A stretch of DNA of 64,000 bases from Escherichia coli (GTDB taxonomy: Bacteria; Pseudomonadota; Gammaproteobacteria; Enterobacterales; Enterobacteriaceae): the NCBI RefSeq assembly GCF_011045215.1, contig NZ_CP049201.1; one strand, given 5' to 3'. Below are positions 20,215 through 46,494 of the stretch, piece after piece (the stretch's first letter is position 1; each line of letters begins with the position of its first letter). A program made the translations under genes and the position numbers. The notes under the pieces are model-generated. The model did not search any database and was not told where the DNA came from. It worked only from the letters and a program-made list of their open reading frames with translations.

Positions 20215-20259
20215 ATGAAAGCAATTTTCGTACTGAAAGCTTGGTGGCGCACTTCCTGA
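20215..20259 (+). CDS. trpL: trp leader peptide (14 aa, tandem Trp codons)
   Basis: ATG AAA GCA ATT TTC GTA CTG AAA GCT TGG TGG CGC ACT TCC TGA; reads [14 protein letters not shown]. Confidence 0.9.
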   Translation: [14 protein letters not shown]

Positions 20260-20301
20260 AACGGGCAGTGTATTCACCATGCGTAAAGCAATCAGATACC
20301 C

Positions 20302-20329
20302 AGCCCGCCTAATGAGCGGGCTTTTTTTT
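20302..20329 (+). terminator. trp attenuator (3:4 terminator hairpin)
   Basis: AGCCCGCCTAATGAGCGGGCT followed by TTTTTTTT, between trpL and trpE. Confidence 0.9.
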
Positions 20330-27526: not shown

Positions 27527-28027
27527 ATGAATATGAAGACCATTGAAGATGTATTTATTCACCTGCTTTCAGATACCTACAGCGCAGAAAAACAATTAAC
27601 CCGGGCACTGGCAAAACTCGCAAGAGCAACATCAAACGAAAAATTAAGTCAGGCTTTTCATGCGCACCTCGAGGAAACACATGGACAGATTGAACGTATT
27701 GATCAAGTTGTGGAATCAGAATCGAATCTGAAAATTAAGCGCATGAAATGTGTGGCAATGGAAGGTCTTATTGAAGAAGCTAATGAGGTCATCGAAAGTA
27801 CCGAGAAAAACGAAGTGCGTGATGCCGCACTGATTGCCGCAGCACAGAAAGTCGAGCACTATGAGATTGCCAGTTACGGGACATTAGCGACGCTGGCTGA
27901 ACAATTAGGTTACCGTAAAGCAGCGAAGCTTCTGAAAGAGACCCTGGAAGAAGAAAAGGCCACCGACATCAAACTGACTGATCTGGCCCTTAATAACGTA
28001 AATAAGAAAGCCGAAAATAAAGCCTGA
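27527..28027 (+). CDS. yciF: YciF, ferritin-like stress protein (DUF892)
   Basis: ORF track 27479..28027; recalled YciF begins MNMKTIEDVFIHLLSDTYSAEKQ, ATG at 27527. Confidence 0.9.
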   Translation: MNMKTIEDVFIHLLSDTYSAEKQLTRALAKLARATSNEKLSQAFHAHLEETHGQIERIDQVVESESNLKIKRMKCVAMEGLIEEANEVIESTEKNEVRDAALIAAAQKVEHYEIASYGTLATLAEQLGYRKAAKLLKETLEEEKATDIKLTDLALNNVNKKAENKA

Positions 28028-28072
28028 AATATGAACTTTAACTTTTAGTCATTTTATAAAGAGGACATTTTC

Positions 28073-28579
28073 ATGAATCGTATTGAACATTATCATGACT
28101 GGTTACGTGACGCCCATGCAATGGAAAAGCAAGCCGAATCTATGCTTGAATCCATGGCCAGCCGTATAGATAATTATCCTGAACTACGTGCTCGTATTGA
28201 ACAACATCTTAGTGAAACCAAAAACCAGATTGTTCAACTGGAAACTATTCTTGATCGTAATGACATTTCACGTTCAGTCATTAAAGATTCCATGAGTAAA
28301 ATGGCTGCGCTTGGGCAGTCAATCGGTGGTATATTCCCTTCTGATGAAATAGTCAAAGGCTCTATTAGCGGATATGTCTTCGAGCAATTTGAAATCGCCT
28401 GTTACACCTCTCTATTAGCAGCAGCAAAAAATGCCGGTGATACAGCCTCAATTCCGATCATCGAAGCGATTTTAAATGAGGAAAAGCAAATGGCCGACTG
28501 GCTGATTGAGCATATTCCGCAAACAACTGAGAAATTTTTAATTCGATCTGAAACTGATGGCGTAGAAGCGAAGAAATAA
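28073..28579 (+). CDS. yciE: YciE, ferritin-like stress protein (DUF892)
   Basis: 168-aa ORF MNRIEHYHDWLRDAHAMEKQ; paralogue of yciF. Confidence 0.9.
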   Translation: MNRIEHYHDWLRDAHAMEKQAESMLESMASRIDNYPELRARIEQHLSETKNQIVQLETILDRNDISRSVIKDSMSKMAALGQSIGGIFPSDEIVKGSISGYVFEQFEIACYTSLLAAAKNAGDTASIPIIEAILNEEKQMADWLIEHIPQTTEKFLIRSETDGVEAKK

Positions 28580-28603
28580 TACCCTTTATGCCATGTCCTT
28601 ATT

Positions 28604-28630
28604 GACCCCGTATATTACGGGGTCGTTTTT
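28604..28630. terminator. Terminator after yciE
   Basis: GACCCCGTA-TATTA-CGGGGTC hairpin followed by GTTTTT. Confidence 0.6.
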
Positions 28631-28638
28631 GTGCGGAA

Positions 28639-28764
28639 TTAAAAACGATATCCTGCTGAGAACATAAACACCCACGGATCGAGGCGTACGCTATCGTGTT
28701 GCTGTGCACCGCCCAGCTTATAATTGGCGGTGGTATCGATATCCATGTACCAGACTGACATGTT
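28639..28764 (-). pseudogene. ompW: 3' fragment of ompW (last 41 codons only)
   Basis: Minus-strand reading MSVWYMDIDTTANYKLGGAQQHDSVRLDPWVFMFSAGYRF-stop matches recalled OmpW C-terminus; in-frame stop and unrelated sequence immediately upstream. Confidence 0.8.
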
Positions 28765-28948
28765 TTAAAAAATGAAATAAGACATTGTATCTGAAAGAAA
28801 AAACAGGATTTTGAGGCGCTTTTTTATACCGTTTCTCCGTGTTTTTAACTGCCTGATTTTATTGAAATCTTTTTTAGTTTTGCAGAAAGGATTTTTTGCT
28901 CGATCGTTTTAATTTTATACATTCCTGATAACGGAAATTTTTTTGCCG

Positions 28949-29061
28949 TTGACAGTTTTTGTTCTCCGGGGCTATATTCCTCACACAACCGCAAAATCGG
29001 TTGTCGGGATTGGCGTCCCGGATGTTTACGGAGCGATATAAGACGCGCCCGCGTCTTTTTT
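28949..29061 (+). ncRNA. Candidate small RNA: sigma70-like promoter, about 75-nt structured transcript, intrinsic terminator
   Basis: TTGACA 28949-28954, 18-bp spacer, TATATT 28973-28978; two internal hairpins (CAACCG..CGGTTG, CGGGA..TCCCG); terminator AGACGCG-CCC-GCGTCT + TTTTT at 29041-29061. Confidence 0.3.
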
Positions 29062-29224
29062 CATATCGTTTGCACAGTCACATTCGCGATTTATGGCGGG
29101 CTGTGTGGGGGAGCCGAAAGGCTCGCCGGTTTCCGTACCCGGTTACGCCAACCCTGCACAGTTCGCCACCAGTTCGATTGGCGTCGTCGGTGGCGATAAT
29201 TTCCAAATGTACGGAGTTATCGTT

Positions 29225-29788
29225 ATGACCACTCAGATTTCTGTCGAAACTCTTTCCCCGATTACACACAATCAAATTCCCGTTATCACTACCGAGTTGC
29301 TGGCGCAGCTTTATGGCACGGACTCAGATAACATCAAAAAGAATTATTCGCGCAACGCAGATCGCTTTTGTGAAGGTAAGCACTTTTACAAGGTGATTGG
29401 CGATGAACTAAAGAATTTGCGGGTGACTTTAAGTCACTCACAAAATCCCATCTCTCCCAAAACTCGCTCCCTCATCCTCTGGACAGAACGCGGCGCAGCC
29501 CGCCATGCCAAAATGCTCGAAACCGATCAGGCGTGGGAAGTGTTCGAAAAACTGGAAGACTGTTATTTCAGCCATAAACAACCACCAGCAACACAAAACT
29601 CCCCCACCCCAAATGATGGATGCGCATTACTGATCCACTTCGATAAACACGGGCAGGTCGAGTTCACGGAAAAAGTCCCCGCCGATGCGATGGTATGCAC
29701 TCTGGAACGGTTTAAATTTTATCTGGAGCAACATGGGTGGATCGTTGCCCGTAAAGAACAATTGGTAGAAAGGTTGATGCGGTTTTAA
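29225..29788 (+). CDS. ORF6N-domain (KilA-N-like) protein
   Basis: ORF track 29093..29788; start taken at MTTQISVETLSPITHNQIPVITTELLAQLYG (ATG 29225); motif typical of ORF6N/antirepressor-like family. Confidence 0.6.
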   Translation: MTTQISVETLSPITHNQIPVITTELLAQLYGTDSDNIKKNYSRNADRFCEGKHFYKVIGDELKNLRVTLSHSQNPISPKTRSLILWTERGAARHAKMLETDQAWEVFEKLEDCYFSHKQPPATQNSPTPNDGCALLIHFDKHGQVEFTEKVPADAMVCTLERFKFYLEQHGWIVARKEQLVERLMRF

Positions 29789-29794
29789 TGAATG

Positions 29795-29828
29795 CAAAAC
29801 CCCGGATGATCACCGGGGTTGATTTTAT
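29795..29828. terminator. Bidirectional terminator between ORF6N gene and tail fibre assembly gene
   Basis: AACCCCGG-ATGATCA-CCGGGGTT hairpin flanked by A/T runs. Confidence 0.5.
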
Positions 29829-30403
29829 CGAGGATGATTGCCGCTAATCGTCATCTCTCTGATTGAGAGTAAATCATCCAAGTTATTCAGCTCTTGCTTC
29901 ATCTCCCGCTGGCGGCGATAAATCTCGTCATTGCGATCGACCTGCGCCTGAACCATTGCAGTAAGCAGCTCATCCAGTTGTTGCATTGACAACTTTACCT
30001 GCTGATTTTCCGCATCGCGCCATACCATGGTTTTCCGTGCCGTGACTGATTTTGCTGATATCACCACCGGGTAAAGACGGGCCATCGAATCCGGTCCCCC
30101 GTTCCAGCTATGACCGTTCCATTCAAAAATGAATGGCTGCGCCTCCTGCTCTGTACGCCATGCTTCAATTTCCCGGCGTTTGGCTGCTTTTGCTGCTTCC
30201 AGCATCTCTGGCGTGACGGTGAACGGCGTTATTTCTCCCCACTTGCCGCTTTGCAGTTCCTGCCAGACTCGCTGCCCTGTCTCTGCTGTATCCGTGGCAG
30301 TTGCCGTATACGGAACCGGTTCATCCATGCCATCAAACAACACCCCGCAGTCAATCGCGCCATTTTCAAGATAACGCGCATTTTCGATGCGTTTTATTTC
30401 CAT
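29825..30403 (-). CDS. Putative tail fibre assembly chaperone (Tfa-like)
   Basis: ORF track 29825..30436, start at MEIKRIENARYLENG (ATG 30403); immediately downstream of a fibre gene. Confidence 0.55.
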   Translation of the reverse strand: MEIKRIENARYLENGAIDCGVLFDGMDEPVPYTATATDTAETGQRVWQELQSGKWGEITPFTVTPEMLEAAKAAKRREIEAWRTEQEAQPFIFEWNGHSWNGGPDSMARLYPVVISAKSVTARKTMVWRDAENQQVKLSMQQLDELLTAMVQAQVDRNDEIYRRQREMKQELNNLDDLLSIREMTISGNHPR

Positions 30404-30410
30404 AAAACAC

Positions 30411-31835
30411 CTACGCAATACGTATGAACAAACCAATCATGACACTGGCTGACCCGGCAGACCCGAGTTCATCGCCTGACAGTGCACGATATGACCCCGG
30501 CATACCACCACCAGAACCCCGCACATATACGGAAACGCTGCCGTTATATCCAACCCCGCTACCGGTCGTGCCGTAACACATAAATTCAACCGCACTCAGG
30601 CGTGACCCCGGATAACTGTAACCGCGCTTTATCCGGCGGTCGGTGTCTGCGTCTCCCTTACCGTTATAAGCCGCCAGTACAAGACTGCCTGCACCGTACC
30701 AGCCGTCCGTGGTACCGGGAGCAATACCGGACAGAAGAGAGATAATGTCCTGTGAGGTAATCTTCAGATTTTCCCAGCCAGTCAGATAACCATTACCTGT
30801 TGTCCAGTAGCGGCTGTAATAAACATCGCCATTGATACCGTAGAAAATAATGGCCTTTGGTGTATATCGCGGTTCCGGTGGATTATTGCGTGCCTCAACC
30901 CACCGGATGCTGACCACCCCGTTAAACAACACACCTCCGGATATGATTTTACTGCCACCCTCAACAAAATATTCACCCGGCGTCGCATTCCTTACCCATG
31001 CCAGAAAATCATCCTCTGTGTTAAAACGGATGCGTTCTGCGGGCAGAAAAATATGCCCAAAACCAAATGCGCCAGGTGTCGCCAGACGGCCTTCAGTCCG
31101 GTCGCGAATGTCGCTCTGTGGCGTCATTGTGGCTGCGCTTTTCAGTCCAAGATTATCACGGGATTCCTGCTGAGCCTCTTCACCTTCATCAGCCAGCTCT
31201 GATAAACGATTCGCCGTTTTCAGTGTCGCAGATAACGCGGTGTCAATATCCTCCCTGACATGCTCTGCATCAGATGCAGCCTGTTTAGCAGCTTCAGCGT
31301 CCTTTTTTACCTCCTCGGCGGCATTCTCAACCTGTGAGACCAGATTTTCGGCCTGTTGTTTACCCTCCGCAACCGCGTCGGCGTTCTGCTGAACACCTTC
31401 CGCCAGTTTTTTTACCTCTTCTTTTTCCCGAGCGGCAGCGTCTGCATGTTGCCCTGCCTGTCGTTCGCTTTCTGTTGCAGTTTCCGCGCTCTGCTGCGCC
31501 TGCGCCACCAGTTCTTCGAACCGCTTAACAACATCCGGCTTCAGGTCGCCTTCATCGAGGGCAGTCAGAAAGTCGTTCAGCGTGCCAGGCTTTGAGTCGT
31601 CGTAAACCGAAATATCACCGACACAGTATTCCCTTTCAATACACGACCGAAGATAAACGTCATATTTTCCGGTCTGAGCTTCAAAAGCATATTCTCCTGC
31701 CGGACCTGTCACCACTGTCGCCACCGTTCTCATGACCACTGCGGATGTATTCTGTCTGGCTTTCAGAATAATATGGTATCCGGACATGGGGAGTCCCGCG
31801 CCATCCGTCAGCACACCCGAAATTAATACAGACAT
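30411..31835 (-). CDS. Side tail fibre (Stf-like): prophage tail-fibre N-terminal domain, Ala/Glu-rich coiled region, distinct C-terminal domain
   Basis: N-terminus ISGVLTDGAGLPMSGYHIILKARQNTS...SVYDDSKPGTLNDFL resembles recalled StfR/StfE N-domain. Confidence 0.7.
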   Translation of the reverse strand: MSVLISGVLTDGAGLPMSGYHIILKARQNTSAVVMRTVATVVTGPAGEYAFEAQTGKYDVYLRSCIEREYCVGDISVYDDSKPGTLNDFLTALDEGDLKPDVVKRFEELVAQAQQSAETATESERQAGQHADAAAREKEEVKKLAEGVQQNADAVAEGKQQAENLVSQVENAAEEVKKDAEAAKQAASDAEHVREDIDTALSATLKTANRLSELADEGEEAQQESRDNLGLKSAATMTPQSDIRDRTEGRLATPGAFGFGHIFLPAERIRFNTEDDFLAWVRNATPGEYFVEGGSKIISGGVLFNGVVSIRWVEARNNPPEPRYTPKAIIFYGINGDVYYSRYWTTGNGYLTGWENLKITSQDIISLLSGIAPGTTDGWYGAGSLVLAAYNGKGDADTDRRIKRGYSYPGSRLSAVEFMCYGTTGSGVGYNGSVSVYVRGSGGGMPGSYRALSGDELGSAGSASVMIGLFIRIA

Positions 31836-31859
31836 TTTTATTTCCTGATTCAGAAAACA

Positions 31860-32936
31860 TTAACCAAAATAATTGACGCCTTTTTTCTTGCCACTGGCTT
31901 TCCCCTTTGCAGAAATATCCGTGGCCAGCGACAGATTCAGCGAAAATCCCTGCACCGGTGACAACGAAAATTCCACTGACTCTGCCTGCCAGTTATGGTC
32001 CTCCCGTACCCCGAAGCCCCGTGTGATAAAGCGCACTTCCGCCCCCGCTTTCAGCAATACCGGTCGGCAGGGCAGCGTTATCGTCATCTGACGCCCCGCT
32101 TTCTGCACCCGCTTTACCTTCGACTGTGCACAATGTTCTGCCGTGCCCTGGTCTGGCTGGGTGAAGGGATGACGCTTGTCTGTGGACTCCACATCCACTT
32201 TAAGTTCACGCGTGCGACCATCAGACGGAGTAAAGTACCTGACACCAACCTTTCCCCCTTTTCCGCCTCCGGATGCCCCCTGCCGATCGCCCTCCCGGTA
32301 ATCCCAGTCTGACACCATATCCGGTGTGATAGTCATCACAGGGGCATCCCTGCCTCCGGTACTCTGCGACGCACCATACTCCAGAAATAACCAGTAACCG
32401 TTCGTCGGTTTACTGGTGGCACCGTACATCCCTGCAAGCCGGGAAAGCAGGGACGCATCCGACTCAGATGACTGCATCACCCACGGAATACGAATTTCCT
32501 CCAGTACCGGAGATACCCGCGCCACCAGATTATTTTCAGTGGCGATCGTTTTTACCAGGTCACCCAGCGTGACATCGCTGAAGGCGCGGGTTTTCAGTGC
32601 AGTCACATCTGCACCATGCCTGGACGCATTCATGGGGGCTGCGGTGGCATAAATGGTGATCCGGCGGGGAGGGCCACCGCTTGCCACCTGACAGACAGTA
32701 AAGCTACCCTTATTCACCAGACGTCCGTTAAACCCCAGCCCCAGCGTTAATACTGCGCCTTTCGGTGGCAATGCCAGCGTTTCACTGAACAGCGTTATCA
32801 TTAACTCATCAGCCCGCTTTGTGGCAGCACCATTATCGGTATAACGCAGTTCAGCCAGTCCGCGTTTTATTGCTTTCGTGATATCCTCGCCTTCCACCGT
32901 CAGACTGAAATCCGGCTGATATTCATTCAGTCCCAT
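31860..32936 (-). CDS. P2 gpD-like tail protein (late control D)
   Basis: 358-aa ORF downstream of U/X in a P2-like order. Confidence 0.75.
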   Translation of the reverse strand: MGLNEYQPDFSLTVEGEDITKAIKRGLAELRYTDNGAATKRADELMITLFSETLALPPKGAVLTLGLGFNGRLVNKGSFTVCQVASGGPPRRITIYATAAPMNASRHGADVTALKTRAFSDVTLGDLVKTIATENNLVARVSPVLEEIRIPWVMQSSESDASLLSRLAGMYGATSKPTNGYWLFLEYGASQSTGGRDAPVMTITPDMVSDWDYREGDRQGASGGGKGGKVGVRYFTPSDGRTRELKVDVESTDKRHPFTQPDQGTAEHCAQSKVKRVQKAGRQMTITLPCRPVLLKAGAEVRFITRGFGVREDHNWQAESVEFSLSPVQGFSLNLSLATDISAKGKASGKKKGVNYFG

Positions 32937-33145
32937 AACTGAAACGTCTCCTTCTCTTCCGGCTCATATGTCCAGTCCGGTAACACAATTTCCACCCCGG
33001 ACGGATACACCGGACCAAGGTCAGCCAGCCCGGGATTGGCTTCCAGTACCGCCGCCAGTGACTGGTTGAGCCCGGCGCTGCCGTAGTGTCTCTGACAGAT
33101 ATCATCCAGCATATCGCCGTCAGTGGTCCGCCAGTTTTTCGCCAT
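32927..33145 (-). CDS. P2 gpX-like tail protein (LysM-like)
   Basis: 72-aa ORF; DDICQRHYG...LEANPGLADLGPVYPSGVEIVLPD resembles recalled P2 X. Confidence 0.7.
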   Translation of the reverse strand: MAKNWRTTDGDMLDDICQRHYGSAGLNQSLAAVLEANPGLADLGPVYPSGVEIVLPDWTYEPEEKETFQLWD

Positions 33146-33614
33146 AGTATTTCAGCTCCAGTGTGAACGTTTTGTTTTTCGGCGCACCGCCGGGAAGAAA
33201 GGACGTGGTGTTATCTGAATAGGCGGTTACAACAAAATACCCCATCACATCCCCCGTCCCGGAAACCAGCAGATGCGGCGCAGGATTTTTATCCACCATC
33301 TGAACCAGCGTATCAAGGGCATCCATCCCCACACCGTCACGAAATCCCGCATGAACCATCCCTTCAAGGCTTATCGTTCTGGCCCCCTTACCGGTATACT
33401 GCAGCAGATCATTTTTTCCGATTAACTGCTGCTCATCCCATCGCCATTCCATGGTGCGCTTCATGGCGTTATACGCCGCTGAATCAATACTGAACTCAAA
33501 CTCACCAAACGACAGCATGACCCGCGAGGCCACATCGGTTAATGAACCAATCCTGTCCCATGCCCTGCGCTCAATCATGTTTGCGCCAAAGCCAACAAAA
33601 TCCACCATCATCAC
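33120..33614 (-). CDS. P2 gpU-like tail protein
   Basis: 164-aa ORF beginning MMMV, between tape measure and X. Confidence 0.65.
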   Translation of the reverse strand: MMMVDFVGFGANMIERRAWDRIGSLTDVASRVMLSFGEFEFSIDSAAYNAMKRTMEWRWDEQQLIGKNDLLQYTGKGARTISLEGMVHAGFRDGVGMDALDTLVQMVDKNPAPHLLVSGTGDVMGYFVVTAYSDNTTSFLPGGAPKNKTFTLELKYYGEKLADH

Positions 33615-35266
33615 CCCCAGAATGCATAACTGTCGGTCATGCTGGCCCGCTGGCCAAAATCAATATCACCCAGATTTTTCGTCACCCTGTCTGCCAGCTG
33701 TCCGGCATCCTCGCCGGGCTTCTGGGTGAGGTTAAATTCAGCCCGTATCTGATACGTGGGTTTTACTTCCACCTGGCTGATACTGCCCGGAACGTAGTGA
33801 AGCGCAGAAAGAGGATCCGTTTTTTCCTGCCCCTGTTTTGTAGCGGGTGGGGTGTCATACTTCGCGAGGACATCAAGCGCTTTCTTTTCCCATCCGTCAA
33901 AGTCCGGATCGTCTTCTGGCCCCAGAAAAGGCTCGAGGGACGCCTCAAATTTTTTATCGTCATCACTCAGGAAACCGCGTGTGTCTGTATACGCCTTCAC
34001 AACCTGCTTCGTCAGATCGGGATTTTTTTTAAGCTGATCATCAAACCATTTATCCTGCCCGTTCCTCTTCGCCACTGCCCTTGCCAGCTCTGGCGAGCCT
34101 GTTTTTGCCAGATATTCCAGCACCTCACGCCGGTCACTCCGTGGATCTTCAGCCAGCCCCCACTCGATGGCCTTTTCAGTGAGCCCGGCAATGACTTTTC
34201 CAAAATTCCACGCCCAGGCCGTCACCTTGATCAACATCGGCAGCGCGTCCTCTCTGATAAATGTATTGATTTTTTCCAGCCCGCCGTTTTTAAACCAGTC
34301 CGCCAGGTCGTCCGTGACCTGCTGAATATTCGGTGCCAGCTCTTTCCCCAGCTGTCCACAGATTTCATCAATGGACGAACCCAGAACACCGGTGAGGTTT
34401 GAGACGGCGATATGTCCCCGGACGGCACCATCCGCCCCTTCCCTGGTCACCAGGTTATAGCGCTTCTGCTCCTCAATAAGCTCCCGGTAAGTTTTTCCTG
34501 ACAGACGCATCCAGGTCAGGATCTTATTACCCTCACCACCAAACAATGCATCCGCCATCCCGGCAGCCTTTTGTTCATCCTTCACCTGCAGCAATCGGTC
34601 AAAAAGAAATTCAACCTGCTCCTGGTTGTTTTTTCCCGCCATCGCCCCGGCTTTCAGCCCCAGCGCCCCGAAGACCTGCTGTATGGCACCTTTATCCGAT
34701 GCGCCATTATCATCATCAAAAACCTTGTTGCGGTACTCCTCAAACAGATCCCCGAAGTTTTCCCCGTTCAGCCCCATCTGCTTACCCAGCGAATCCCACG
34801 CTGCATACGTCTCATAATCCACACCGTAACTCCGGGCTATCCCTGCCCGCTCTGCAGTTTCACTGTTCCGGCTAAATGCTGCACCGGCAGCGCCTGCCAG
34901 TGTCAGTCCTGCCCCGACCGAAAGCCCTAACCCCGCTTTCAGAGCGGTCTTTCCACGCCCTTTCCAGCGTTCCAGACGTTCCGCACGTGCCAGCTTACGG
35001 TTAAATTTATCCTGCTCTCCGGTGGCATCATGAATTTTTTTGCCCAGCTTTTCATACTGCTTTCGCAGTTCAGTAATATCCTGCCCTGCCAGTACGCCAG
35101 CCTGAATTTTTCGTTTCAGTACATCCTGCTGGCGAGTCAGGCGAGCCACTTCCTGCGTTGCCCCTGATAATCCGTGCTTCAGTCCATCAACCGATTTTTT
35201 CCACGACGGATCTATCGTGCCGCCGATCCTGATATTCGCTTTCAGGTTATCGCCCACCGTTGCCAT
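33611..35266 (-). CDS. Tail tape measure protein (551 aa)
   Basis: Long Ala/Gly/Lys-rich ORF following the E/E' chaperone pair; start MATVGDNLKANIRIGG. Confidence 0.7.
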   Translation of the reverse strand: MATVGDNLKANIRIGGTIDPSWKKSVDGLKHGLSGATQEVARLTRQQDVLKRKIQAGVLAGQDITELRKQYEKLGKKIHDATGEQDKFNRKLARAERLERWKGRGKTALKAGLGLSVGAGLTLAGAAGAAFSRNSETAERAGIARSYGVDYETYAAWDSLGKQMGLNGENFGDLFEEYRNKVFDDDNGASDKGAIQQVFGALGLKAGAMAGKNNQEQVEFLFDRLLQVKDEQKAAGMADALFGGEGNKILTWMRLSGKTYRELIEEQKRYNLVTREGADGAVRGHIAVSNLTGVLGSSIDEICGQLGKELAPNIQQVTDDLADWFKNGGLEKINTFIREDALPMLIKVTAWAWNFGKVIAGLTEKAIEWGLAEDPRSDRREVLEYLAKTGSPELARAVAKRNGQDKWFDDQLKKNPDLTKQVVKAYTDTRGFLSDDDKKFEASLEPFLGPEDDPDFDGWEKKALDVLAKYDTPPATKQGQEKTDPLSALHYVPGSISQVEVKPTYQIRAEFNLTQKPGEDAGQLADRVTKNLGDIDFGQRASMTDSYAFWG

Positions 35267-35686
35267 AACGTCGCCGCCTCTCTTCCGATTCCTCCAGCAT
35301 CATTGACACAAAATCTGCATACGGCAGCGCCATCACATCTCCGGGAGACCACCCGAACCAGGCACCGGCGCGCCGTATCGCTGTCAGGATGCTGTCTTCT
35401 TCCGCCTGACCGGCGGCAGCAAAAAAACATTAAACTGCCGCTCCAGGGCCAGGTAATCACACGCTTCCATATTCATCATGTCCGCCGCATCCATTCCGCA
35501 CAGGCCGGCTATCATATCCAGATCGGCTTCTGCTTCCGGCTTGGTACTCCGGCGATGTAACAGACGATCGCGGACGGTGGGTGCACGCATGGTGACATGC
35601 GAGATTGTCTGACCTGACGCAGTGACATACGGCACGGATAACACAATCTCCACGCTGCTGCAGGGAATACTGTTTATCTCTGGCAT
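35247..35686 (-). CDS. Tail assembly chaperone E+E' fusion via putative -1 programmed frameshift
   Basis: Slippery site G-TTTTTTT-G at 35421-35427 (minus strand); the -1 frame stays open for 58 codons and ends at 35247, overlapping tape-measure start. Confidence 0.55.
35384..35686 (-). CDS. Tail assembly chaperone (P2 gpE-like)
   Basis: 100-aa ORF between tube and tape measure; contains slippery T7G run near its 3' end. Confidence 0.7.
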   Translation of the reverse strand: MPEINSIPCSSVEIVLSVPYVTASGQTISHVTMRAPTVRDRLLHRRSTKPEAEADLDMIAGLCGMDAADMMNMEACDYLALERQFNVFLLPPVRRKKTAS

Positions 35687-35746
35687 ATTGATTTCCTCTT
35701 AAAAAGAAAAGGCGGCCTGAACCGCCTGAATGACCACTTCTCCGGA

Positions 35747-36265
35747 TCACACCCGGATAATTTTTTTCAGATCCGACAGCACATTCACACCGTTAATGCG
35801 CCGTACAAACTGCTCCGGAATAATGCAGATGGTCTCCAGTCCATCGACAGCCTGGCGGTAATAACTCAGTGACATTTCCACCGACACCGCTGCTTCTGCC
35901 TGCGAGGTGGACGGACGCGCATCCGGCGTGATACTGGTGATCATCCCCTGAAGGGTTTCCACCAGACCGCTTGTTGCACCGCCCACCTGATACGCCTGAC
36001 GGACAACAATTTCTGGCGAATAAATCCCTGCCTGCAATCCCAGCAGAGTCAGTATGGCCACGTCGTATCCGTAAATTTTAAACGAGCAGGTCAGCGCCTC
36101 CATACCGTCATCCACTGACACCGGCGCATCCATCGCACCGGTTTTGATGTCCACCTTCGTGATATTGATGGCCGGAGGCGTGTACTCATGTGCCCCCTGA
36201 AGGCGAATACCACCCGGCAGAAAGAGCGCCCATGCCCGTAGCAGTTTTTTTTCGCACGACATCAT
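35747..36265 (-). CDS. Tail tube protein (P2 FII-like)
   Basis: 172-aa ORF directly after sheath, ATGA overlap. Confidence 0.75.
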   Translation of the reverse strand: MMSCEKKLLRAWALFLPGGIRLQGAHEYTPPAINITKVDIKTGAMDAPVSVDDGMEALTCSFKIYGYDVAILTLLGLQAGIYSPEIVVRQAYQVGGATSGLVETLQGMITSITPDARPSTSQAEAAVSVEMSLSYYRQAVDGLETICIIPEQFVRRINGVNVLSDLKKIIRV

Positions 36266-37737
36266 ACTGTCAGTTCCTCCTGTGCCAGTTTATTGTTGAT
36301 CATTGTACGCAGCGTCAGGCGTTCCAGTGGTGACTTCGGCCCGAAGTCATAGTCGATATACAACTGCCCGGCAGCCAGGGTTTCTGCTGTATTCAGTTCG
36401 TCGTTCAGCCATGCGCTACCACCGTGGATCGCGCCCAGATTTTTAAGCTGGCGCATGTAGGCATTAATACTGCCGAGAATATCGTCCGCAACATCCCGAT
36501 CAATCGGACGGTCAACATAAGGCAACATGGATTCCTGAACACTGTCTTCAATCACATCAGCCGTACGGCGCACGGACTCAAAGCGCAACTGGCTATGAGA
36601 TGTGCACAGGCGGTTACCCCAGTGTTTAAAACCGTCATGACGAATAATGGTGGAGATGTTTTCCATGTTCAGCAGATTTGCCGTGCAGTTCTGCTCCCCG
36701 AGAATAAATGTATCCACCTGCTCAAGACCGGTGATATTCATCACGTCCTGATTTGATTTGGACCACCACCATCCTTTTTCATAATCAATACGGGCACGCA
36801 GTCCGGCAGCGCGTGCCGAATACGGGCGAAACACTGTTTGTCCGCTGTCATCCGTCACCGACACGCGCGGACGAAGCAGTTCAACACGCCCACCAAATAA
36901 CGTCCGGCGCTGAACCACATCCTGCGGCGTTACCATTGAGGGGGAGTCAATATAGGCAACAGCCCGCAGTTTCGCGGCATACGTTTCCAGCGCCTTTGCC
37001 ACACCATCATCCTCGCTGTAGCCAGTGGCGACAAGAATACGCGGCTGGTAGCCTGTTACGCCTTTGCTCTTCGTCAGAGCTTCCATGGCCTTAATCACTG
37101 CGGCACGCTGTTCTGCCTCCTTCGCTTTCGGTTTGCTTTCCGCACGTACCACAATCACCAGCGCACCGGTCTGGTCAAAAATATCACGCAGGGCAGGATA
37201 CAGCGTTCCGGAAGCCCCCAGCTTTCCGGCCTGCGTGAGTGCCCCCGCCACCACCACCGGCGTATTAACCGGAAATGCCTCATCCTCACCGCCGGACAAC
37301 GTCAGGGTAAAGGGAGATACCACTCCTTCCCCGACAGAATCTGCATTCAGCATGCTGGTATCGGCCATCACCGGTGAATCCTCCAGCGCATTCACAACCT
37401 CCTTCACACGTGACGCAGTGGCATTCGTCTCACCATGTTCATCTGTGCCCAGTGTGATCGTCAGGGTGTTTCCCTCCAGAGCCGCGGTTGTCTCTGCGTT
37501 TTGCTGCGTGCTTCCGTTGGCCACAACTGAAATCTCATTGCCGGACCGCCCGGCTTTTTTCGCTGTAAAATCCAGCGCGGAACTCAACAACCATGATCCG
37601 GCAGTACCGGAAGCACACACACCGCCGGAGGCGTCCGGCGCTGTCCCCACGAGGCCAATCACTGCCGTGGAGACGGTCTGCACGGCCACCGTGCCTGTCG
37701 TCAGTTCAATGGTTTCCACACCATGTAGTCCGGACAT
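36262..37737 (-). CDS. Tail sheath protein (P2 FI-like) with enlarged central region
   Basis: ORF track 36262..37824; start taken at MSGLHGVETIELTTGTVAVQTVSTAVIGLVGTAPDA (ATG 37737, RBS GGGAGAAA); C-terminus LYIDYDF..PLERLTLR resembles recalled P2 sheath. Confidence 0.8.
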   Translation of the reverse strand: MSGLHGVETIELTTGTVAVQTVSTAVIGLVGTAPDASGGVCASGTAGSWLLSSALDFTAKKAGRSGNEISVVANGSTQQNAETTAALEGNTLTITLGTDEHGETNATASRVKEVVNALEDSPVMADTSMLNADSVGEGVVSPFTLTLSGGEDEAFPVNTPVVVAGALTQAGKLGASGTLYPALRDIFDQTGALVIVVRAESKPKAKEAEQRAAVIKAMEALTKSKGVTGYQPRILVATGYSEDDGVAKALETYAAKLRAVAYIDSPSMVTPQDVVQRRTLFGGRVELLRPRVSVTDDSGQTVFRPYSARAAGLRARIDYEKGWWWSKSNQDVMNITGLEQVDTFILGEQNCTANLLNMENISTIIRHDGFKHWGNRLCTSHSQLRFESVRRTADVIEDSVQESMLPYVDRPIDRDVADDILGSINAYMRQLKNLGAIHGGSAWLNDELNTAETLAAGQLYIDYDFGPKSPLERLTLRTMINNKLAQEELTV

Positions 37738-37792
37738 ACATTTCTCCCATAAAAAAACCGCCCCTGAGGCGGTCAGTTGATTTACTTCTTTT

Positions 37793-38338
37793 TCAGGTGT
37801 TTTGTGGAGGTACTGGCCACTCAATGGCGTTATATGAGGTTTTATCAGTGATGGTGCTGAAATCCATCGCCTGCAGCGATTTCGCGTAAATGCGGTACGC
37901 TTTCAGCTTTTCCCTGTCCTCGTCGCTGATTAATCCCAGCAACAGGTCTTTTTCCCATTCGCTGGTCATTATACTGACCTGTTTTAACAGGGCATCACGC
38001 TCGTCTTCCGCTTTAAGTTTGTAGTCGAAAACAAATTCATCATTGCGGTAAAACCAGTAGCCTGATGCTTCAATGCGACGATTAGCGGTAATATCCGGCA
38101 ACTCAATCACGCTTTTATTTTCCGGGCAGATTGAGGTGATGTCTTTTCCGACCCAGACCACTTCGCCAGTTTCAACATAAATAACTTTCAGGGTGTCTGG
38201 TAGAAATTTTTCCTGGGCTTCGTGCCATTCCTGTCCATCATCTGAGAACAGCCACAATAAAAATTTATGCTGTCGCGCCAGCTGGTATTGCTCAATTGTT
38301 TTAGGGTTTTGTACCGTAATATTTTTTAAGTGCATCAT
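37793..38338 (-). CDS. Tail fibre assembly chaperone (P2 gpG / Tfa family)
   Basis: 181-aa ORF directly after fibre gene; C-terminus ...NAIEWPVPPQNT typical of Tfa. Confidence 0.75.
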   Translation of the reverse strand: MMHLKNITVQNPKTIEQYQLARQHKFLLWLFSDDGQEWHEAQEKFLPDTLKVIYVETGEVVWVGKDITSICPENKSVIELPDITANRRIEASGYWFYRNDEFVFDYKLKAEDERDALLKQVSIMTSEWEKDLLLGLISDEDREKLKAYRIYAKSLQAMDFSTITDKTSYNAIEWPVPPQNT

Positions 38339-38340
38339 GA

Positions 38341-39714
38341 TTACAAACTCGCTACATTTCTCCAGACGCCATTAATCAGAACCTGCACCGGGCGTGCATT
38401 GGCCCAGTCCACACTTTCACCGCCATCAACACCACTCAGTAAATGACCTGATGGCGCATTTCCCCCGCGTCCAATACCAATGGCGCTTCCCAGACGTACA
38501 TCCTGCACGCCGCCTGTTTTGGTCTGATAGCGGGCATCAAAGTTTCCGTAGTTTGATGGAGTTATCTGCCCATTTACAGCGAATGTGACGCTACCGTCTG
38601 TATTTCTCTGACTGTAGAAATGCCAGCCGGAATCATCACCAAGCTCTGCAACTACAGGTCTGGATGGATTACCCCATAAATTAAACCCTACGTTCTTCGT
38701 GGAGCTGTTGGAGCTGGATAGCGTGAATTTTTTACTATCCCCGGCCTGAACGTTTTTAAAAGCAATAGCAACTCCATTCTGAAAGCGAAATACGCGCTGA
38801 TTATTAGCATAAACATCCAGAATGCCGTCGCCGTTTTGTTTTATACCTGTATCGTTATCACCGAGAGTAATAGAATTACCACCCAATGCGTTATTCGTAC
38901 CAAGCGCCAGCCCACCATCAATTTTTGCACCGTGGCTGACTGATATAGCGCCTGTTCTCAGATTTATAGCAAATGGCCTTAATGGGCCGATATCACCGTT
39001 TTCGCCCCGTCCTTCAGACGTCGGGATAAAATGAAGATATTCTTCCGAACGACGAAAAATCAGGCCAAAAGCATCGTCGAAAATTCGCAGCGCATTCACC
39101 GTGCCAATTTTCAGCTCCCCGGTCATGGTGTCACCACCGCGCTGAACGGCATTTTTCGCTTTATCCACCGTAGGTTTTAATCCGAGGTTATCAACCGCTT
39201 CATCTTTATCTTCCACATCGGCAAGATTCTCGCCGATGCGCAGATAGCGTTTATCTCCGGCCTCCTGCGTGATAATCGCCCTGTGAGGATCCACCTCCAG
39301 CGTCACACTCTGTGTATGTGTAAGCGCAAGAACCAGTGTCAGTATCACCTCCTTGATAACGGAATCCGTCTGTGCCGGTAAATACGTATCCGGATAACGA
39401 CCATACGCAATCAGCGTGCCACGGCGACTCACCATCCCCAGCTCGCGCAGGGTCTTTCCCGGGTATGACTGACAGTCAATGACAATATCCCCGCTGATAA
39501 AACCTTCGTCCACCACGCCGCCTGAAAAGGGCTCCCGACCAAACTCACCACACAACATGACCATCGCCGCCATCTCATCCGGCGTTGAGGGCAGTGTTTT
39601 CCCGCCCCCGTCACCAATCATCACCTGACTGATGGTCACCACCTCACCGGCATGATATGCAGCTTCAATTTCGGCTGCCCCGGCTGTTGTCAAAACTAGT
39701 CCATGCATACCCAC
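38341..39714 (-). CDS. Tail fibre protein (P2 gpH-like)
   Basis: 457-aa ORF; C-terminal half (NNALGGNSITLGDNDTGIKQNGDGILDVYANNQRVFRFQNGVAIAFKN...) closely resembles recalled P2 H. Confidence 0.8.
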   Translation of the reverse strand: MGMHGLVLTTAGAAEIEAAYHAGEVVTISQVMIGDGGGKTLPSTPDEMAAMVMLCGEFGREPFSGGVVDEGFISGDIVIDCQSYPGKTLRELGMVSRRGTLIAYGRYPDTYLPAQTDSVIKEVILTLVLALTHTQSVTLEVDPHRAIITQEAGDKRYLRIGENLADVEDKDEAVDNLGLKPTVDKAKNAVQRGGDTMTGELKIGTVNALRIFDDAFGLIFRRSEEYLHFIPTSEGRGENGDIGPLRPFAINLRTGAISVSHGAKIDGGLALGTNNALGGNSITLGDNDTGIKQNGDGILDVYANNQRVFRFQNGVAIAFKNVQAGDSKKFTLSSSNSSTKNVGFNLWGNPSRPVVAELGDDSGWHFYSQRNTDGSVTFAVNGQITPSNYGNFDARYQTKTGGVQDVRLGSAIGIGRGGNAPSGHLLSGVDGGESVDWANARPVQVLINGVWRNVASL

Positions 39715-39717
39715 AAC

Positions 39718-40299
39718 TCACTCCACCCACTCATCCCGGATACCCCGGGTATCATCAGCACTGATACCACTGACTTTTTCTGTTGCCATCACATAACCGT
39801 AACCAAAAATACGCCCCCTGCTGTTTCCGTAAAGATGAACACTGAACCAGCTGCGCAGATTTTTGGCACGGAGCACCGCATGCTTCAGATCCTGATAGTC
39901 ATTCATCTGTACCGGTAAATCCTTCTGCTCCACATTCAACCGGAAGGTATAGGGTTCACCTGGTGGCGTCTGCTCATACCACTCCACAATCTGTGACCGG
40001 AACGGGCTGTCTGTCAGTGATTCGTTCAGAGCGGCTTTTGTTCCCCGGTGACGATGGATATAAGCGGCACGTTTTATCGCCGCTCTTTTTTCCGCCTCCG
40101 TCCAGTGTTCATTCCAGGCGTCCACCGACATTTCCCAGGCCAGCCATGGCAGCAATTCCGTCGGACATAAATCGGGATTTTTTACATAGCGGATCAGACA
40201 GACCGCGATTTCCGCCAGCATATCACCGGCGGTACTGTCCACCACCCGCTCTGCCCGGCTGGCGCTGACAGGAAGTATGCTTCTGATGATGTCATTCAT
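39718..40299 (-). CDS. Baseplate protein (P2 gpI-like)
   Basis: 193-aa ORF; LLPWLAWEMSVDAWNEHW motif resembles recalled P2 I. Confidence 0.75.
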   Translation of the reverse strand: MNDIIRSILPVSASRAERVVDSTAGDMLAEIAVCLIRYVKNPDLCPTELLPWLAWEMSVDAWNEHWTEAEKRAAIKRAAYIHRHRGTKAALNESLTDSPFRSQIVEWYEQTPPGEPYTFRLNVEQKDLPVQMNDYQDLKHAVLRAKNLRSWFSVHLYGNSRGRIFGYGYVMATEKVSGISADDTRGIRDEWVE

Positions 40300-41206
40300 C
40301 GGTTGCCTCCACCTTGTTCAGTGTGACTGAGCGACACCATGGAGCCTGTCCCATCGCCGGAACAATATCACTGGCCGGCGATTTCAGTGCCACCGTAATC
40401 ACCCCCGTCTGATGCAGGGCTCCGTCCATACCGGAGCAGGACGCCACAGAACCAATCCGGTGAACACTGTCAGTGTATGTCTGCAGCGCCTGACGGGCAT
40501 TTTTCATCACCAGTTCACCATCCAGCCCGTAGGGAATATGAATATCTGCAACCACATCGTAGAGAATAATTTCTGCCGCACGGACACTGACAAAATCCGT
40601 CAGAGGTCGAATTTCATCATCATTGACTGACGCTGCCACCTTATCCAGCAGGGGTTGCGATGCCGTACCGTTTCCGGTTCGCGATAACACATAAAGAAAA
40701 ACACGCCCTTCCTGTGAATGCGTTTCCGGCCCGTAGGCTTTCACATCCAGCACATCAGGATCAGCACTCTGTGCAAAATAATGGTAAGCATTTTTCGCAC
40801 CGGCTGTACTGAGTCGCGCCCACGACAACTGAATACGCTCACGAAAGGCATCATCCCCTTCATACACCGCCGGTGTGGGCGGGATAGTGCTGTCATCTGC
40901 CGGAGTAATCACCAGACGTTGCACCTGAAAATTCGCACCAATCTGATCCAGATCGTTCCTGCGGGCACTGGCAAGCAGTACAGCCCGGACTGCATCATTG
41001 ACCTGCTGGCGCATCAGCGCCACCCGAAAAGCAAGCGCCTCCGCCCATTTATACGCCGGATCTGATTCCACCAGGGCCGAAAACAACGTGTCCAGTTCCT
41101 GATATTTCGCCACTATCTGAGTGACCAGCACAGCGGTGTCCGGCACCTCCACCGCATCCGGTACAGGTATCGCGGACAAATCAATAATGGCCTGAGACGT
41201 TGTCAA
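40292..41206 (-). CDS. Baseplate assembly protein J (P2 gpJ-like)
   Basis: 304-aa ORF; ...ITPADDSTIPPTPAV... identical stretch to recalled P2 J. Confidence 0.8.
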   Translation of the reverse strand: MTTSQAIIDLSAIPVPDAVEVPDTAVLVTQIVAKYQELDTLFSALVESDPAYKWAEALAFRVALMRQQVNDAVRAVLLASARRNDLDQIGANFQVQRLVITPADDSTIPPTPAVYEGDDAFRERIQLSWARLSTAGAKNAYHYFAQSADPDVLDVKAYGPETHSQEGRVFLYVLSRTGNGTASQPLLDKVAASVNDDEIRPLTDFVSVRAAEIILYDVVADIHIPYGLDGELVMKNARQALQTYTDSVHRIGSVASCSGMDGALHQTGVITVALKSPASDIVPAMGQAPWCRSVTLNKVEATDE

Positions 41207-41537
41207 TTCTGATTTCCTCCAGACGAATTGTTTCCTGTGTTTCGTTATTCACGCCCAAAAGCGTCAACATGACATTTCCCTCACCGCCGAAGCTCACCTC
41301 CACACGGCGGATCGTCAGTCTCGGTTCCCAGCGTTCAAGAGCGGTAACCGTCTCACGGACAATCCTCACCCGTGTGAAATCATCCTGCGGGTTATCAAGC
41401 AGACTGAACAACCTGCTGCCGTATTCCCTGAGAAGTACCCGGCTGCCGACTGGTGTTGACAAAATATCGGTGACGGACTGACGCAGATGTTCGTTACCGT
41501 GCAGATATCTGCCGGTGGCGGAATCAATACCAATCAT
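41181..41537 (-). CDS. Baseplate protein W (P2 gpW / gp25-like)
   Basis: ORF track 41181..41627; start taken at MIGIDSATGRYL (ATG 41537); SVTDILSTPVGSRV resembles recalled P2 W. Confidence 0.75.
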   Translation of the reverse strand: MIGIDSATGRYLHGNEHLRQSVTDILSTPVGSRVLLREYGSRLFSLLDNPQDDFTRVRIVRETVTALERWEPRLTIRRVEVSFGGEGNVMLTLLGVNNETQETIRLEEIRIDNVSGHY

Positions 41538-41571
41538 GAAATTTTTCCGAAAAAAAACGCCGGTGCGGCGT

Positions 41572-42195
41572 TCACATTTCCTGGTTAGGTTTACGGGTGG
41601 TTCCCCCGCTGTCGCCAGGGTGATCATGAGTATTATAAATTTCGCGAATTTTACTCATGCTGCCGGTTTTATCGGTGATCTCCTGTGAGGCACCGATATT
41701 GCCCAGAACCTGCGTATCGGCATTAATCTTCGTTTCTCCCTGCACAGTCAGGGTATCCGTGATTTCCACCGGACCGTCCAGCGTTCCCCTGCCGGTGATT
41801 TTATAGCTGCCGCTTTCAGCCAGCGTGATGGACAGGGCATTGGCTTTACGGTCGTAACGGATTTCCGTTCCGGTATCAAACAAAATAACATGCTCGTGTT
41901 CACTGCCCGCCGGTACAGGAATGGCGTCAATATTCGCCCCCGGATACACACGACCGTTACGCAGATCGCCCGCCTCCGATATCACCGTGACCGCATCTCC
42001 TGGTGCCGGGTAATTACTGACCTGCATGTAACGCCCGGACTGCATCTGAATCCAGGGCAACGGCGGCGAAAGCACATCTCCGATATCCACCCGAACCATC
42101 ACCGGGTTACCCGGGATCACCTCTTCCACCACGCCGCGACGGATCATGTCCGCCACCCTGCGGCGTAACTCTGCCACTTCATCCGCCAGACTCAT
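41572..42195 (-). CDS. Baseplate spike protein V (P2 gpV-like)
   Basis: ORF track 41572..42354; start taken at MSLADEVAELRRRV (ATG 42195); C-terminus HDHPGDSGGTT as in P2 V. Confidence 0.8.
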   Translation of the reverse strand: MSLADEVAELRRRVADMIRRGVVEEVIPGNPVMVRVDIGDVLSPPLPWIQMQSGRYMQVSNYPAPGDAVTVISEAGDLRNGRVYPGANIDAIPVPAGSEHEHVILFDTGTEIRYDRKANALSITLAESGSYKITGRGTLDGPVEITDTLTVQGETKINADTQVLGNIGASQEITDKTGSMSKIREIYNTHDHPGDSGGTTRKPNQEM

Positions 42196-42339
42196 CGCCG
42201 GTGCCCTCCGCTTTCCAGATAAGACGATAATCCTGCACATGCTTTTTACCGGTTTCCGGTACTTTACCCAGCCAGACTTCCTGTAACGGCACACCTGCCG
42301 GAGCCGCAAACGGATCTTCGCCGACCGGAATGTCCTGTT
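42179..42339 (-). pseudogene. 3' fragment of a tail-completion gene (P2 gpS-like position), separated from its 5' part by the inserted element
   Basis: Open frame ...FSFEQDIPVGEDPFAAPAGVPLQEVWLGKVPETGKKHVQDYRLIWKAEGTGDESGG-stop with no upstream start (in-frame stop at 42398-42400); ATGA overlap with gene V. Confidence 0.55.
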
Positions 42340-42348
42340 CAAAAGAGA
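42340..42348. repeat. Left copy of 9-bp direct repeat CAAAAGAGA (putative att core)
   Basis: Identical 9-mer at 53493-53501; both copies sit in the same reading frame of the split gene. Confidence 0.5.
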
Positions 42349-42760
42349 AAGCAAACAAACAAGATAATAAGTTGAATTTAAAGGAATAAAAAAGGCATCA
42401 TTTTTGCTTTTGGTACAAATTCTAGTCCGTATAAACGCGGAAAAATCCGCTAAATTAAGATAAAAAAGATGCTTAGATAGTTACTATGTTTAGCTTCATG
42501 GCTACGGGGAGTAAGTTTGCTCTTTGCTTAATCTCGGTTATGGAAATCCCCATATCGGCATCATGCCCACCAGCGTGACGCATTTTTTTTAATTTCGCGG
42601 GTATAAAAATTTGACGAGGCGGGCGGTCCCATAAGCAATGGGGTGTAGGGATTCCGATCCCCCTGGGGGGGGTATTAAACACCCACCCTATTTAAATACC
42701 GTCTTTTTTGTCACTGTGTGTCACTGGTTGTCACTCTCCGTCACGGTATGCCACCATAAG

Positions 42761-43075
42761 TTAACGTCGTAACCGCTCCGGCTTCTTCCAGTGGTAAGTA
42801 ATTTTTTCTTTCTCCTGGTACATCTGCACGCGGCGACGGTATGACAACATCTCCAGAACTCTGGTGCGTATATTGCGCATATCCACGCCGTTAAGCTCAA
42901 TACCGTCACGGCGCATCACCTCAGCCACCACACGCGCGTAATTTTCGGCTATCACGCTGTCCGGCTGCGTGGCCTCCTGTTTGCCTGCTGGTGGTCTGAT
43001 TCCGGCAGCACGGCGAATCATTTTGAGCATTTCGGCTTCGGTCATTGTCATGGCCTCCGTGGTGATGGAAAACAA
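42761..43075 (-). CDS. Hypothetical protein downstream of element terS
   Basis: 104-aa ORF, no recognised motif; start uncertain (Met at 43075, 43051 or 43045). Confidence 0.4.
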   Translation of the reverse strand: MFSITTEAMTMTEAEMLKMIRRAAGIRPPAGKQEATQPDSVIAENYARVVAEVMRRDGIELNGVDMRNIRTRVLEMLSYRRRVQMYQEKEKITYHWKKPERLRR

Positions 43076-43310
43076 TGCCGTAATTGTGGCGGGTCCTTCC
43101 TGGAAAATGAAACACCGGGGGTGGCCATACGCGCAATTCTTAACTGTTTATGAAAATTTTTCGGGAAAAGTCAGATCCGTTCTTCTTCTCTGTAACTCAT
43201 TGTTTAATGGTAAAATCATCAAAAAAAGAAAGGATCTGGCAGTGGTCATTCTGGGCCCAAAATGACGTTATCAGATCCTTTCTCAGTTTTGTTCAATAAT
43301 TGCGCGGTTG

Positions 43311-43895
43311 TCACTCAGCTCTCTGTTGCCGTAACTTCTCCGGCACGTTTCCGGTTGTTTCCATCAGATAATCTTCCAGAATGCGGGGCAGGTTATCGGC
43401 AGTTTTAGCGCACGCATTACAGGCGCGTGCTGTTTCCCTCCTCAGGCCATCGATCATTGCCGGAGTCATCGCGGGAAACTGCCTTTGCATCGTAAGGGGC
43501 AAGCTATTCATGATGGTTGAAATCTGTTGCGCCAGTTTAGACAGTGCATACATACAAAAGCCGGTATCTATAACCTCTCCTGTCTCCCTGGCGTTCTTCA
43601 GTTCCTGCCCGTCAGCCTGTGCTTTAGTGAGACGGTATCGTTCGTACTCTGTTGTGCCTGGCTGTAAATCTGATTCACCAACGGCACGTAAATCATCAAG
43701 CTCACTGCGGAGTTTTTCTTTTTCGATCTCCTTCTCCCTCTGTACATACCATTCGATCACCTGTGAAGAGTCGAAAGTCACCTCCATACCTTTTCCGCCA
43801 CCAGATACATGGGGGAGCCCTTGCATCTGCCAACGTTCAATTGTGCGCGGATCAACACCGAAAATCTCTGCCAGTCTCTTTTTGTTAACATTCAT
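43311..43895 (-). CDS. Terminase small subunit, lambda Nu1-like (element copy)
   Basis: N-terminus MNVNKKRLAEIFGVDPRTIERWQMQGLPHVSGGGKGMEV resembles recalled lambda Nu1 winged HTH; C-terminal half similar to the prophage TerS at 62051..62560. Confidence 0.8.
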   Translation of the reverse strand: MNVNKKRLAEIFGVDPRTIERWQMQGLPHVSGGGKGMEVTFDSSQVIEWYVQREKEIEKEKLRSELDDLRAVGESDLQPGTTEYERYRLTKAQADGQELKNARETGEVIDTGFCMYALSKLAQQISTIMNSLPLTMQRQFPAMTPAMIDGLRRETARACNACAKTADNLPRILEDYLMETTGNVPEKLRQQRAE

Positions 43896-44039
43896 TTATC
43901 AAATCCTCATCAAAAACCACCTCCGACATGAAACGCCTGAAAAACGGGATTTTCCGGCGTTATGGTGTCGTATGTTTATTATAGTTAATTTAAATAAAAA
44001 CATAATGTTACATGCAAGAAGTACCGACATGCTTTTTCC

Positions 44040-44115
44040 CTGAAAAATTTTCATAAATAGTGAAAATCTGCGCGTCTGCCGCCCCGCGGTGTTTCTGATT
44101 CTGGAAAGGACCCGT
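44040..44115. other. Lambda-like cos site of the element
   Basis: GAAAAATTTTCATAAATAG ... GCGCGTCTGCCGCCCCGCGG ... GGAAAGGACCCG; reverse complement resembles the lambda cos junction (CGCTATTTATGAAAATTTTCC, GGGCGGCGACCT, GGGTCCTTTCC); about 185 bp upstream of terS. Confidence 0.6.
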
Positions 44116-44194
44116 GAAAATTGGGGCGATCACCACCGTTCCGGATACAAAAAAAATCGCGAGACCTTGCCAGCCTCGCGAACGTTCATTTCAG

Positions 44195-44620
44195 TTACTT
44201 AACAGACAGCAACAGCTTTTCATCTTCGGTCAGTCCGGCGTTGCCATCACCGGCTGCTGGCCCAACACATTTCGGGCTGTGCTTTTCCATGTACGCTTCA
44301 AACAGAAAAGCCGTTTTCTTTTCCTGCATCATTGCCTGGGCATCCACGGCAGCCAGTAACGTTTGTGCATAGGTTACTGTCATTACTTCAGAACCACACT
44401 CAATCAGCTTACTGGTGAACTCAGGGTATTTTGATGCCAGCGGTAACGCCTTGATACCCTCTATGCGCTGTTTATCACTCTCAGCCTTTGCAGTAAGCAC
44501 CGTTCGGGCTTCTGTCAGTGATGCGCCATTATTTGCGAGATTTTCCGCAAGCGTCGGGTATTTCTGCGCCTCAGGCAGTGCCATGATCAATGCTCTGGTT
44601 GAATTTGCTTTCTCAGTCAT
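44195..44620 (-). CDS. Hypothetical head-module protein (possible scaffold)
   Basis: 141-aa ORF between decoration-like gene and cos; no recognised motif. Confidence 0.45.
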   Translation of the reverse strand: MTEKANSTRALIMALPEAQKYPTLAENLANNGASLTEARTVLTAKAESDKQRIEGIKALPLASKYPEFTSKLIECGSEVMTVTYAQTLLAAVDAQAMMQEKKTAFLFEAYMEKHSPKCVGPAAGDGNAGLTEDEKLLLSVK

Positions 44621-44634
44621 AAATCACCACAAAA

Positions 44635-44964: not shown

Positions 44965-44974
44965 ACGATCCCCT

Positions 44975-46482: not shown

Positions 46483-46494
46483 GTCACTCGTTGC

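Follow-up and report, generated by a model that had tools for sequence, protein, structure and literature searches.

The window analysed here is a stretch of 64,000 nt from the Escherichia coli contig NZ_CP049201.1, and its left half is E. coli chromosome carrying acnA, topA, trpLEDCBA, yciG, yciF and yciE, with a backbone that is 99.4% identical to the best complete-genome match. An STnc180 sRNA and the trp operon leader (7595-7797 and 20236-20329) are found at their usual chromosomal spots and are ordinary. Everything past position 28764 is phage DNA, in the order antirepressor module, contractile tail, embedded satellite and lambda-like head genes, and this prophage runs off the window end at 64000. 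The features with which the following paragraphs are concerned are these:

28073-28579, plus strand: yciE, the last chromosomal gene ahead of the junction; an ORF with annotated yciE at the equivalent spot in C5, SA53-3 and K-12
28603-28635, plus strand: intrinsic terminator hairpin and T-run between the convergent yciE and ompW; a 10-pair stem TGACCCCGTATATTACGGGGTCG, then TTTTTGTGCG, identical in K-12; the hairpin alone is 28603-28625
28639-28764, minus strand: native ompW 3' end, apparently displaced; codons 172-212 and stop, from comparison with K-12
28730-28757, minus strand: 28-nt identity block CAGT(C)TGGTACATGGATATCGATACCAC, common to native and phage-borne copies in the attL/attR/attB comparison
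28765-28971, minus strand: phage P arm of the attachment site, by homology to the right end of PPompW_132418
28877-28888, in the P arm: candidate integrase arm-type site TTTCTGCAAAAC, the sole match in the window with at most 1 mismatch
28972-29788, plus strand: antirepressor module at the prophage right end, by Rfam matches above the gathering score and by PHROG for ant
28972-29024, plus strand: c4-a1b1 target (Rfam)
28985-29061, plus strand: isrK-like Hfq-binding RNA (Rfam)
29089-29173, plus strand: C4 antisense RNA (Rfam)
29225-29788, plus strand: ant gene (phrog_2379 anti-repressor, E 3.9e-89)
29825-42348, minus strand: contractile-tail module with tail fibres, gpD-like tail protein, tape measure, tube, sheath and baseplate, by PHROG, collinear with the SA53-3 and C5 prophages
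42349-53489, minus strand: 11.1-kb satellite resembling helper-embedded PICIs, inside a prophage late gene, seen as an insertion relative to the C5 prophage
53490-64000, minus strand: head and packaging genes (cognates of lambda Nu1, A, W, B, C, D, E, FI and FII) and the start of the lysis-proximal region, by Pfam, the annotation of relatives and ORFs

The minus-strand ORF at 28639-28761 translates as MSVWYMDIDTTANYKLGGAQQHDSVRLDPWVFMFSAGYRF. When the K-12 ompW gene was compared with the window by blastn, 28639-28764 on the minus strand was found to correspond to ompW nt 514-639 with 125/126 nt identical (E 2.7e-60), and a tblastn search of the window recovered OmpW residues 172-212 at 41/41, the ompW stop codon being 28639-28641. 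The sole mismatch to K-12 is a synonymous G>C change at 28753. The same blastn search detected none of ompW nt 1-513 elsewhere in the window, and, together with a repeat search, neither a second att copy nor an intact ompW inside it. The K-12 segment running from yciE through the terminator to the ompW 3' end aligns without gaps to 27998-28764 at 98.4%, and this alignment ends exactly at 28764. An earlier note on this DNA, made from the sequence alone, had placed the last 41 ompW codons on the minus strand right after the yciE terminator, with the rest of the gene absent and phage DNA following; its count is exact, its statement on the missing part holds, and the nucleotide match to ompW, on which it had staked its reading, stands. 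The span of 28639-28770 that it gave starts correctly and overshoots by 6 nt at the other end, where homology stops at 28764. Judged from these comparisons, 28639-28764 reads as a pseudogene remnant of ompW that comprises the B' arm and the core of an attR.

The window junction was aligned with the empty site of K-12 and with both junctions of two relatives, SA53-3 (NZ_CP076279.1) and 08-00022. Only the 28-nt block at 28730-28757 is shared by all of the native and phage-borne copies that were compared. The block sequence CAGTGTGGTACATGGATATCGATACCAC is present at the phage-proximal end of the fragment with one change, the synonymous C at 28753, which is also found in attL of SA53-3, EFF60 and CRE287. 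In 08-00022, the junction on the phage side already has the bases of the phage at fragment positions 4 and 7, and the integrase-side junction is phage-specific from fragment position 36 on, indicating that strand exchange occurred within fragment positions 8-35, which are 28730-28757 of the window. On this alignment the 28-nt block must hold the integrase crossover, and any exact exchange point inside it is one that we infer; the G/C difference at position 12 gives no clear finer placing, since each of its alleles could come from the host or from the phage. In annotating this region, one would label the 126-nt remnant an ompW pseudogene fragment marking attR and set the prophage boundary at 28757-28764.

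Directly past 28764 lies an AT-rich arm of about 200 nt. Lambda-like prophages in ompW (PPompW) with 121-bp attL/R have been described, along with a survey of complete genomes (Nakamura et al., 2021, PLoS Pathog, PMC8112680), and the window fragment together with about 130 nt of the P arm is 216/249 (87%) identical to the right end of one of them, PPompW_132418. The distance from the core to the arm motif CTGCAAAAC is 123 nt in the window, SA53-3 and C5 (NZ_CP010122.1), and CTCTGCAAAAC occurs in relatives as three tandem copies after the ompW stop, on the integrase side; the candidate arm-type motif is found on both arms. We take the TTTCTGCAAAAC and CTCTGCAAAAC motifs to be putative arm-type integrase sites. 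The arm is followed by features of a P1/P7 immI-type module, with Rfam matches to RF01695 (77.6 bits), RF03163 (48.6 bits) and RF01394 (75.2 bits) and then ant. A near-consensus promoter-like site (28949-28978) and a terminator-like site (29040-29057) are also seen at the antirepressor module.

The occurrence of this junction was examined in 5426 complete E. coli genomes. With window 28400-29100 as the query, consisting of the yciE end, the fragment and 336 nt of the phage arm, at least 80% of the query was found in 191 of the 5426, and PGAP labels the fragment in junction-sharing genomes as 'OmpW family outer membrane protein, incomplete, missing N-terminus'. With a query made of the 3' half of ompW plus the 3' end of the integrase, again at least 80% covered, ompW was found directly next to the cognate integrase in 1708/5426 genomes. 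The site is filled in roughly a third of the complete E. coli genomes, Shiga-toxin phages included, and few prophage sites in E. coli are used as heavily as ompW. A prophage in the ompW 3' end is a very common and already published integration, and the present junction, being of the same kind as PPompW, is already known and means little as a discovery.

The genomes sharing the junction include relatives in which the whole layout can be followed. SA53-3 is the closest overall, with 87-90% of the window phage DNA covered at 90-93% identity; onward from there its prophage carries lysis genes, subAB, stx2a, Q, replication, immunity, exonuclease, xis and an arm-type integrase. An intact ompW lies beside the integrase and excisionase, 60.8 kb from the junction, and the stop of this full-length ompW is about 45 nt past the integrase gene, followed by yciC. 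The prophage of 08-00022, which is 48.9 kb long and has no satellite, shows the same junction and layout, with an intact ompW and int-xis at its far end. C5 is the closest at the junction itself (98.9%). The C5 prophage has been split. Beyond the ompW fragment its phage DNA continues for about 2 kb before tRNA-Ser and the hya operon begin; its tail and head genes are found 318 kb away, beside a Mu-like prophage. To judge from this arrangement, the C5 break is consistent with an inversion between prophages. An exact-protein look-up with the TerS of the window phage gave only relatives that are 92-99% identical and have no satellite, and the tail-fibre protein has no entry on record.

With a probability of about 0.93, window 28639-28764 is in our view the attR (P-O-B') junction formed by a lambdoid prophage of the PPompW type described in the literature. 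Integration into the ompW 3' end, which the earlier note had proposed, is borne out by the same junction in the 191 genomes, by the full layout in relatives, by the matching PPompW record and by the published site. One could suppose that the ORF of 40 codons, which opens with an in-frame ATG, is a chance frame or an independent small gene and no ompW fragment at all; however, this ATG is Met173 of OmpW, no promoter-like site was found on the minus strand ahead of the ORF, and 125 of 126 identical nucleotides, with the E value mentioned above, rule such a supposition out. The missing 5' part of ompW might also suggest that the gene was cut by a deletion or another non-integrative event and that phage DNA came to lie beside the remnant by chance. 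This is very improbable, and a simple deletion was rejected, because ompW is broken in the very range of nucleotides that the published PPompW attachment repeat occupies, because the adjoining phage DNA is homologous to PPompW right arms and because the identical breakpoint recurs in as many as 191 genomes.

A somewhat less remote alternative accepts the attR as genuine and supposes that a later inversion, or recombination with a second lambdoid prophage, has rearranged the prophage and that its far end does not abut ompW and the integrase. It draws support from C5, the best junction match, where the phage DNA gives way after about 2 kb and the remaining phage genes lie 318 kb off, and from reported inversions between ompW and ydfJ prophages (PMC8112680). 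We nevertheless consider it improbable for the present genome, because the window contains 35 kb of phage DNA that is collinear, from the Ant module through tail and head to terS, with the intact prophages of SA53-3 and 08-00022. Under the preferred reading, an attR of an ompW prophage, an intact ompW at the far prophage end of this genome is very likely, and the expectation stays short of certain because in C5 an inversion between prophages appears to have parted the two ends. We infer that the far-end architecture resembles that of the relatives, with an intE-type integrase, excisionase and intact ompW beyond the window. Since the 11.1-kb insertion is added to a prophage of about 49 kb, the far junction is expected at about 88-90 kb in window coordinates, about 25 kb past the window end.

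The arrangement would arise as follows. A lambda-type tyrosine integrase with an arm-binding domain would recombine attP with a site inside ompW codons ~174-183, and the native last 41 codons would be pushed to the far side of the prophage, where they would lie without a promoter, flanked by the right arm of the phage and the terminator of yciE. The 5' three quarters of the gene, at the opposite junction, would be joined to a phage-carried 3' end, followed by arm-type sites, int and xis. The phage would thereby supply a substitute for ompW codons ~184-212, so that ompW would stay intact. That an integrating phage can replace the 3' end of its target gene and keep the gene intact is a principle already stated in PMC10111431 and known for icd and tRNA targets. 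The intact ompW is completed by a diverged phage-borne copy in all lysogens that were examined, and full-length OmpW is kept in the lysogens of 6 relatives; that of SA53-3 has 212 aa and 7 substitutions. The description of the ompW 3' end as duplicated, given in the earlier note, is therefore loose: a second copy is indeed present in lysogens, but it has diverged and shares with the native fragment an identical block of only 28-40 nt.

Three replacement variants were distinguished across six attL sequences: ASYKFNGTPVKD, AKYKSGVTTVKD and AKYKSDGRKLAKGSYSDN, the last being 5 residues longer, and native OmpW has ANYKLGGAQQHD at this site. The amino-acid changes are confined to residues 185-194, where 7 of 10 differ, and codons 195-212 (beta-8) have only synonymous changes. 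In the usual topology of an 8-stranded barrel, the segment ahead of the last strand is extracellular and should be surface loop L4, and OmpW is the receptor of colicin S4. OmpW has been solved as an 8-stranded barrel (2F1T, 2MHL). It is conceivable, and in our view rather unlikely, that the replacement ends rewrite the OmpW segment between the last two beta-strands, probably loop L4, and that lysogeny amounts to a lysogenic conversion of this receptor. If true, the window fragment would preserve the ancestral OmpW loop. In a non-exhaustive search of the literature, we found no description of OmpW loop rewriting by lysogeny. A by-product of modest interest is that the phage-supplied and native ends of ompW differ just in what is probably a surface loop.

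Another by-product concerns the satellite at 42349-53489. It is an insertion relative to the C5 prophage, which is 98.8-99.8% identical, and there is a 12-nt overlap at the junctions. The insertion splits a 183-aa late gene (phrog_1072; N-part 53434-53898, C-part 42179-42358) that is intact in C5; this gene is uncharacterised and sits between a neck/tail-completion gene and baseplate V. Because a late gene is interrupted, the prophage may make no virions unless the satellite excises first. Genes for an integrase, Bro-N, primase-helicase, SSB, major capsid, decoration, a scaffold-like protein and a small terminase were assigned in the satellite, and none for a large terminase, portal or tail; the key genes are all on the minus strand, co-oriented with the helper late operon. 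For the integrase, NCBIfam gives only a sub-threshold match to PRK09692. A 69-aa ORF at the AlpA position has no profile match, and the unassigned satellite ORFs have no match in PADLOC or NCBIfam. On the plus strand at 50095-50823, opposite to the rest of the satellite, there are two ORFs, one of 62 aa and one for a 176-aa protein predicted to be membrane-anchored. No PHROG, PADLOC or NCBIfam match was obtained for either, and both are in the variable zone, a part of satellites that frequently holds accessory genes. The same insertion is found in three complete genomes and four draft contigs (the contigs 87-98% identical), and the satellite core is also seen in many strains at chromosomal sites, combined with other integrases.

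The satellite and its helper share two stretches, 44042-44121 with 62704-62783 (81%) and 51119-51178 with 63350-63409 (75%). Since the first is found just ahead of the small-terminase gene in satellite and helper alike, we propose 44042-44121/62704-62783 as a candidate shared cos/packaging site. The helper S49 peptidase/scaffold gene contains three tandem 138-nt repeats (57041-57454, 66-100% identity), and a related 36-nt stretch (44349-44384) is located in the 141-aa scaffold-like gene of the satellite, which has a PHROG match to the C-terminal end of a head maturation protease.

Among known systems, the satellite resembles the helper-embedded PICIs (Tommasini, Mageeney and Williams, 2023, PMC10111431) in its integrase, Bro-N, replication genes, captured late genes and an att identity of about 10-12 nt. 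A doubled TGTATTGC attP motif has been reported as unique to that clade (PMC10111431); no doubled TGTATTGC / tgTGTATTGCantgTGTATTGCa motif flanking an attP centre was found in the whole window with up to 3 mismatches. By its gene content and position, the satellite appears to fit the helper-embedded PICI configuration without the doubled motif of the clade. Its target also differs, being an uncharacterised 183-aa gene by contractile-tail baseplate genes, which the main text of PMC10111431 does not mention. A prophage satellite lacking the motif reported for the described clade is again of modest interest.

For the prophage as a whole, the Stx2a/subtilase-cytotoxin prophage of SA53-3 shares with the window its junction, its tail and head modules and its satellite, inserted at the identical position, with 87-94% coverage at 90-95% identity. 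It differs in being only 90-95% identical and in carrying stx2a and subAB in its early region, the counterpart of which is beyond the window.

The PPompW prophages of STEC O145:H28 share with the window the ompW 3' site, the 28-nt block, a homologous right arm with CTGCAAAAC and the native end beside yciE. Excision and attP formation have been shown for PPompW in O145, with excised circles detected by PCR (PMC8112680). The deposited PPompW records (GenBank LC567818-LC567841) and the older P-EibA match the fragment and P arm at about 87%. The GenBank record of PPompW_132418 gives a 121-bp 'duplication due to insertion', which starts at the same CAGT; its two copies have 25 differing positions, and their only uninterrupted identity is the same 28 nt. 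The ompW identity in the window runs 7 nt (AACATGT) further into the phage side than in PPompW_132418. The O145 PPompW prophages have a lambda-like non-contractile tail and T3SS effector genes, whereas the window phage has a contractile tail, which shows weak DNA matches to the phiP27 tail-fibre genes (8% of the query, 82%), and the heads are lambda-like. The 21-bp attB-in-PP_1 site of O145 PPompW (GTCATGCAGTTAAAGTGGCGG) is absent from the window.

Phage 21 and e14 integrate in icd, and the ompW prophages resemble this type in that attP provides a surrogate 3' end, the gene is kept intact and the native remnant is left at the other junction. They differ from it in that the target is ompW and in that the surrogate end alters the protein, at 7 of the 10 residues of 185-194, with one variant extended by 5 residues.
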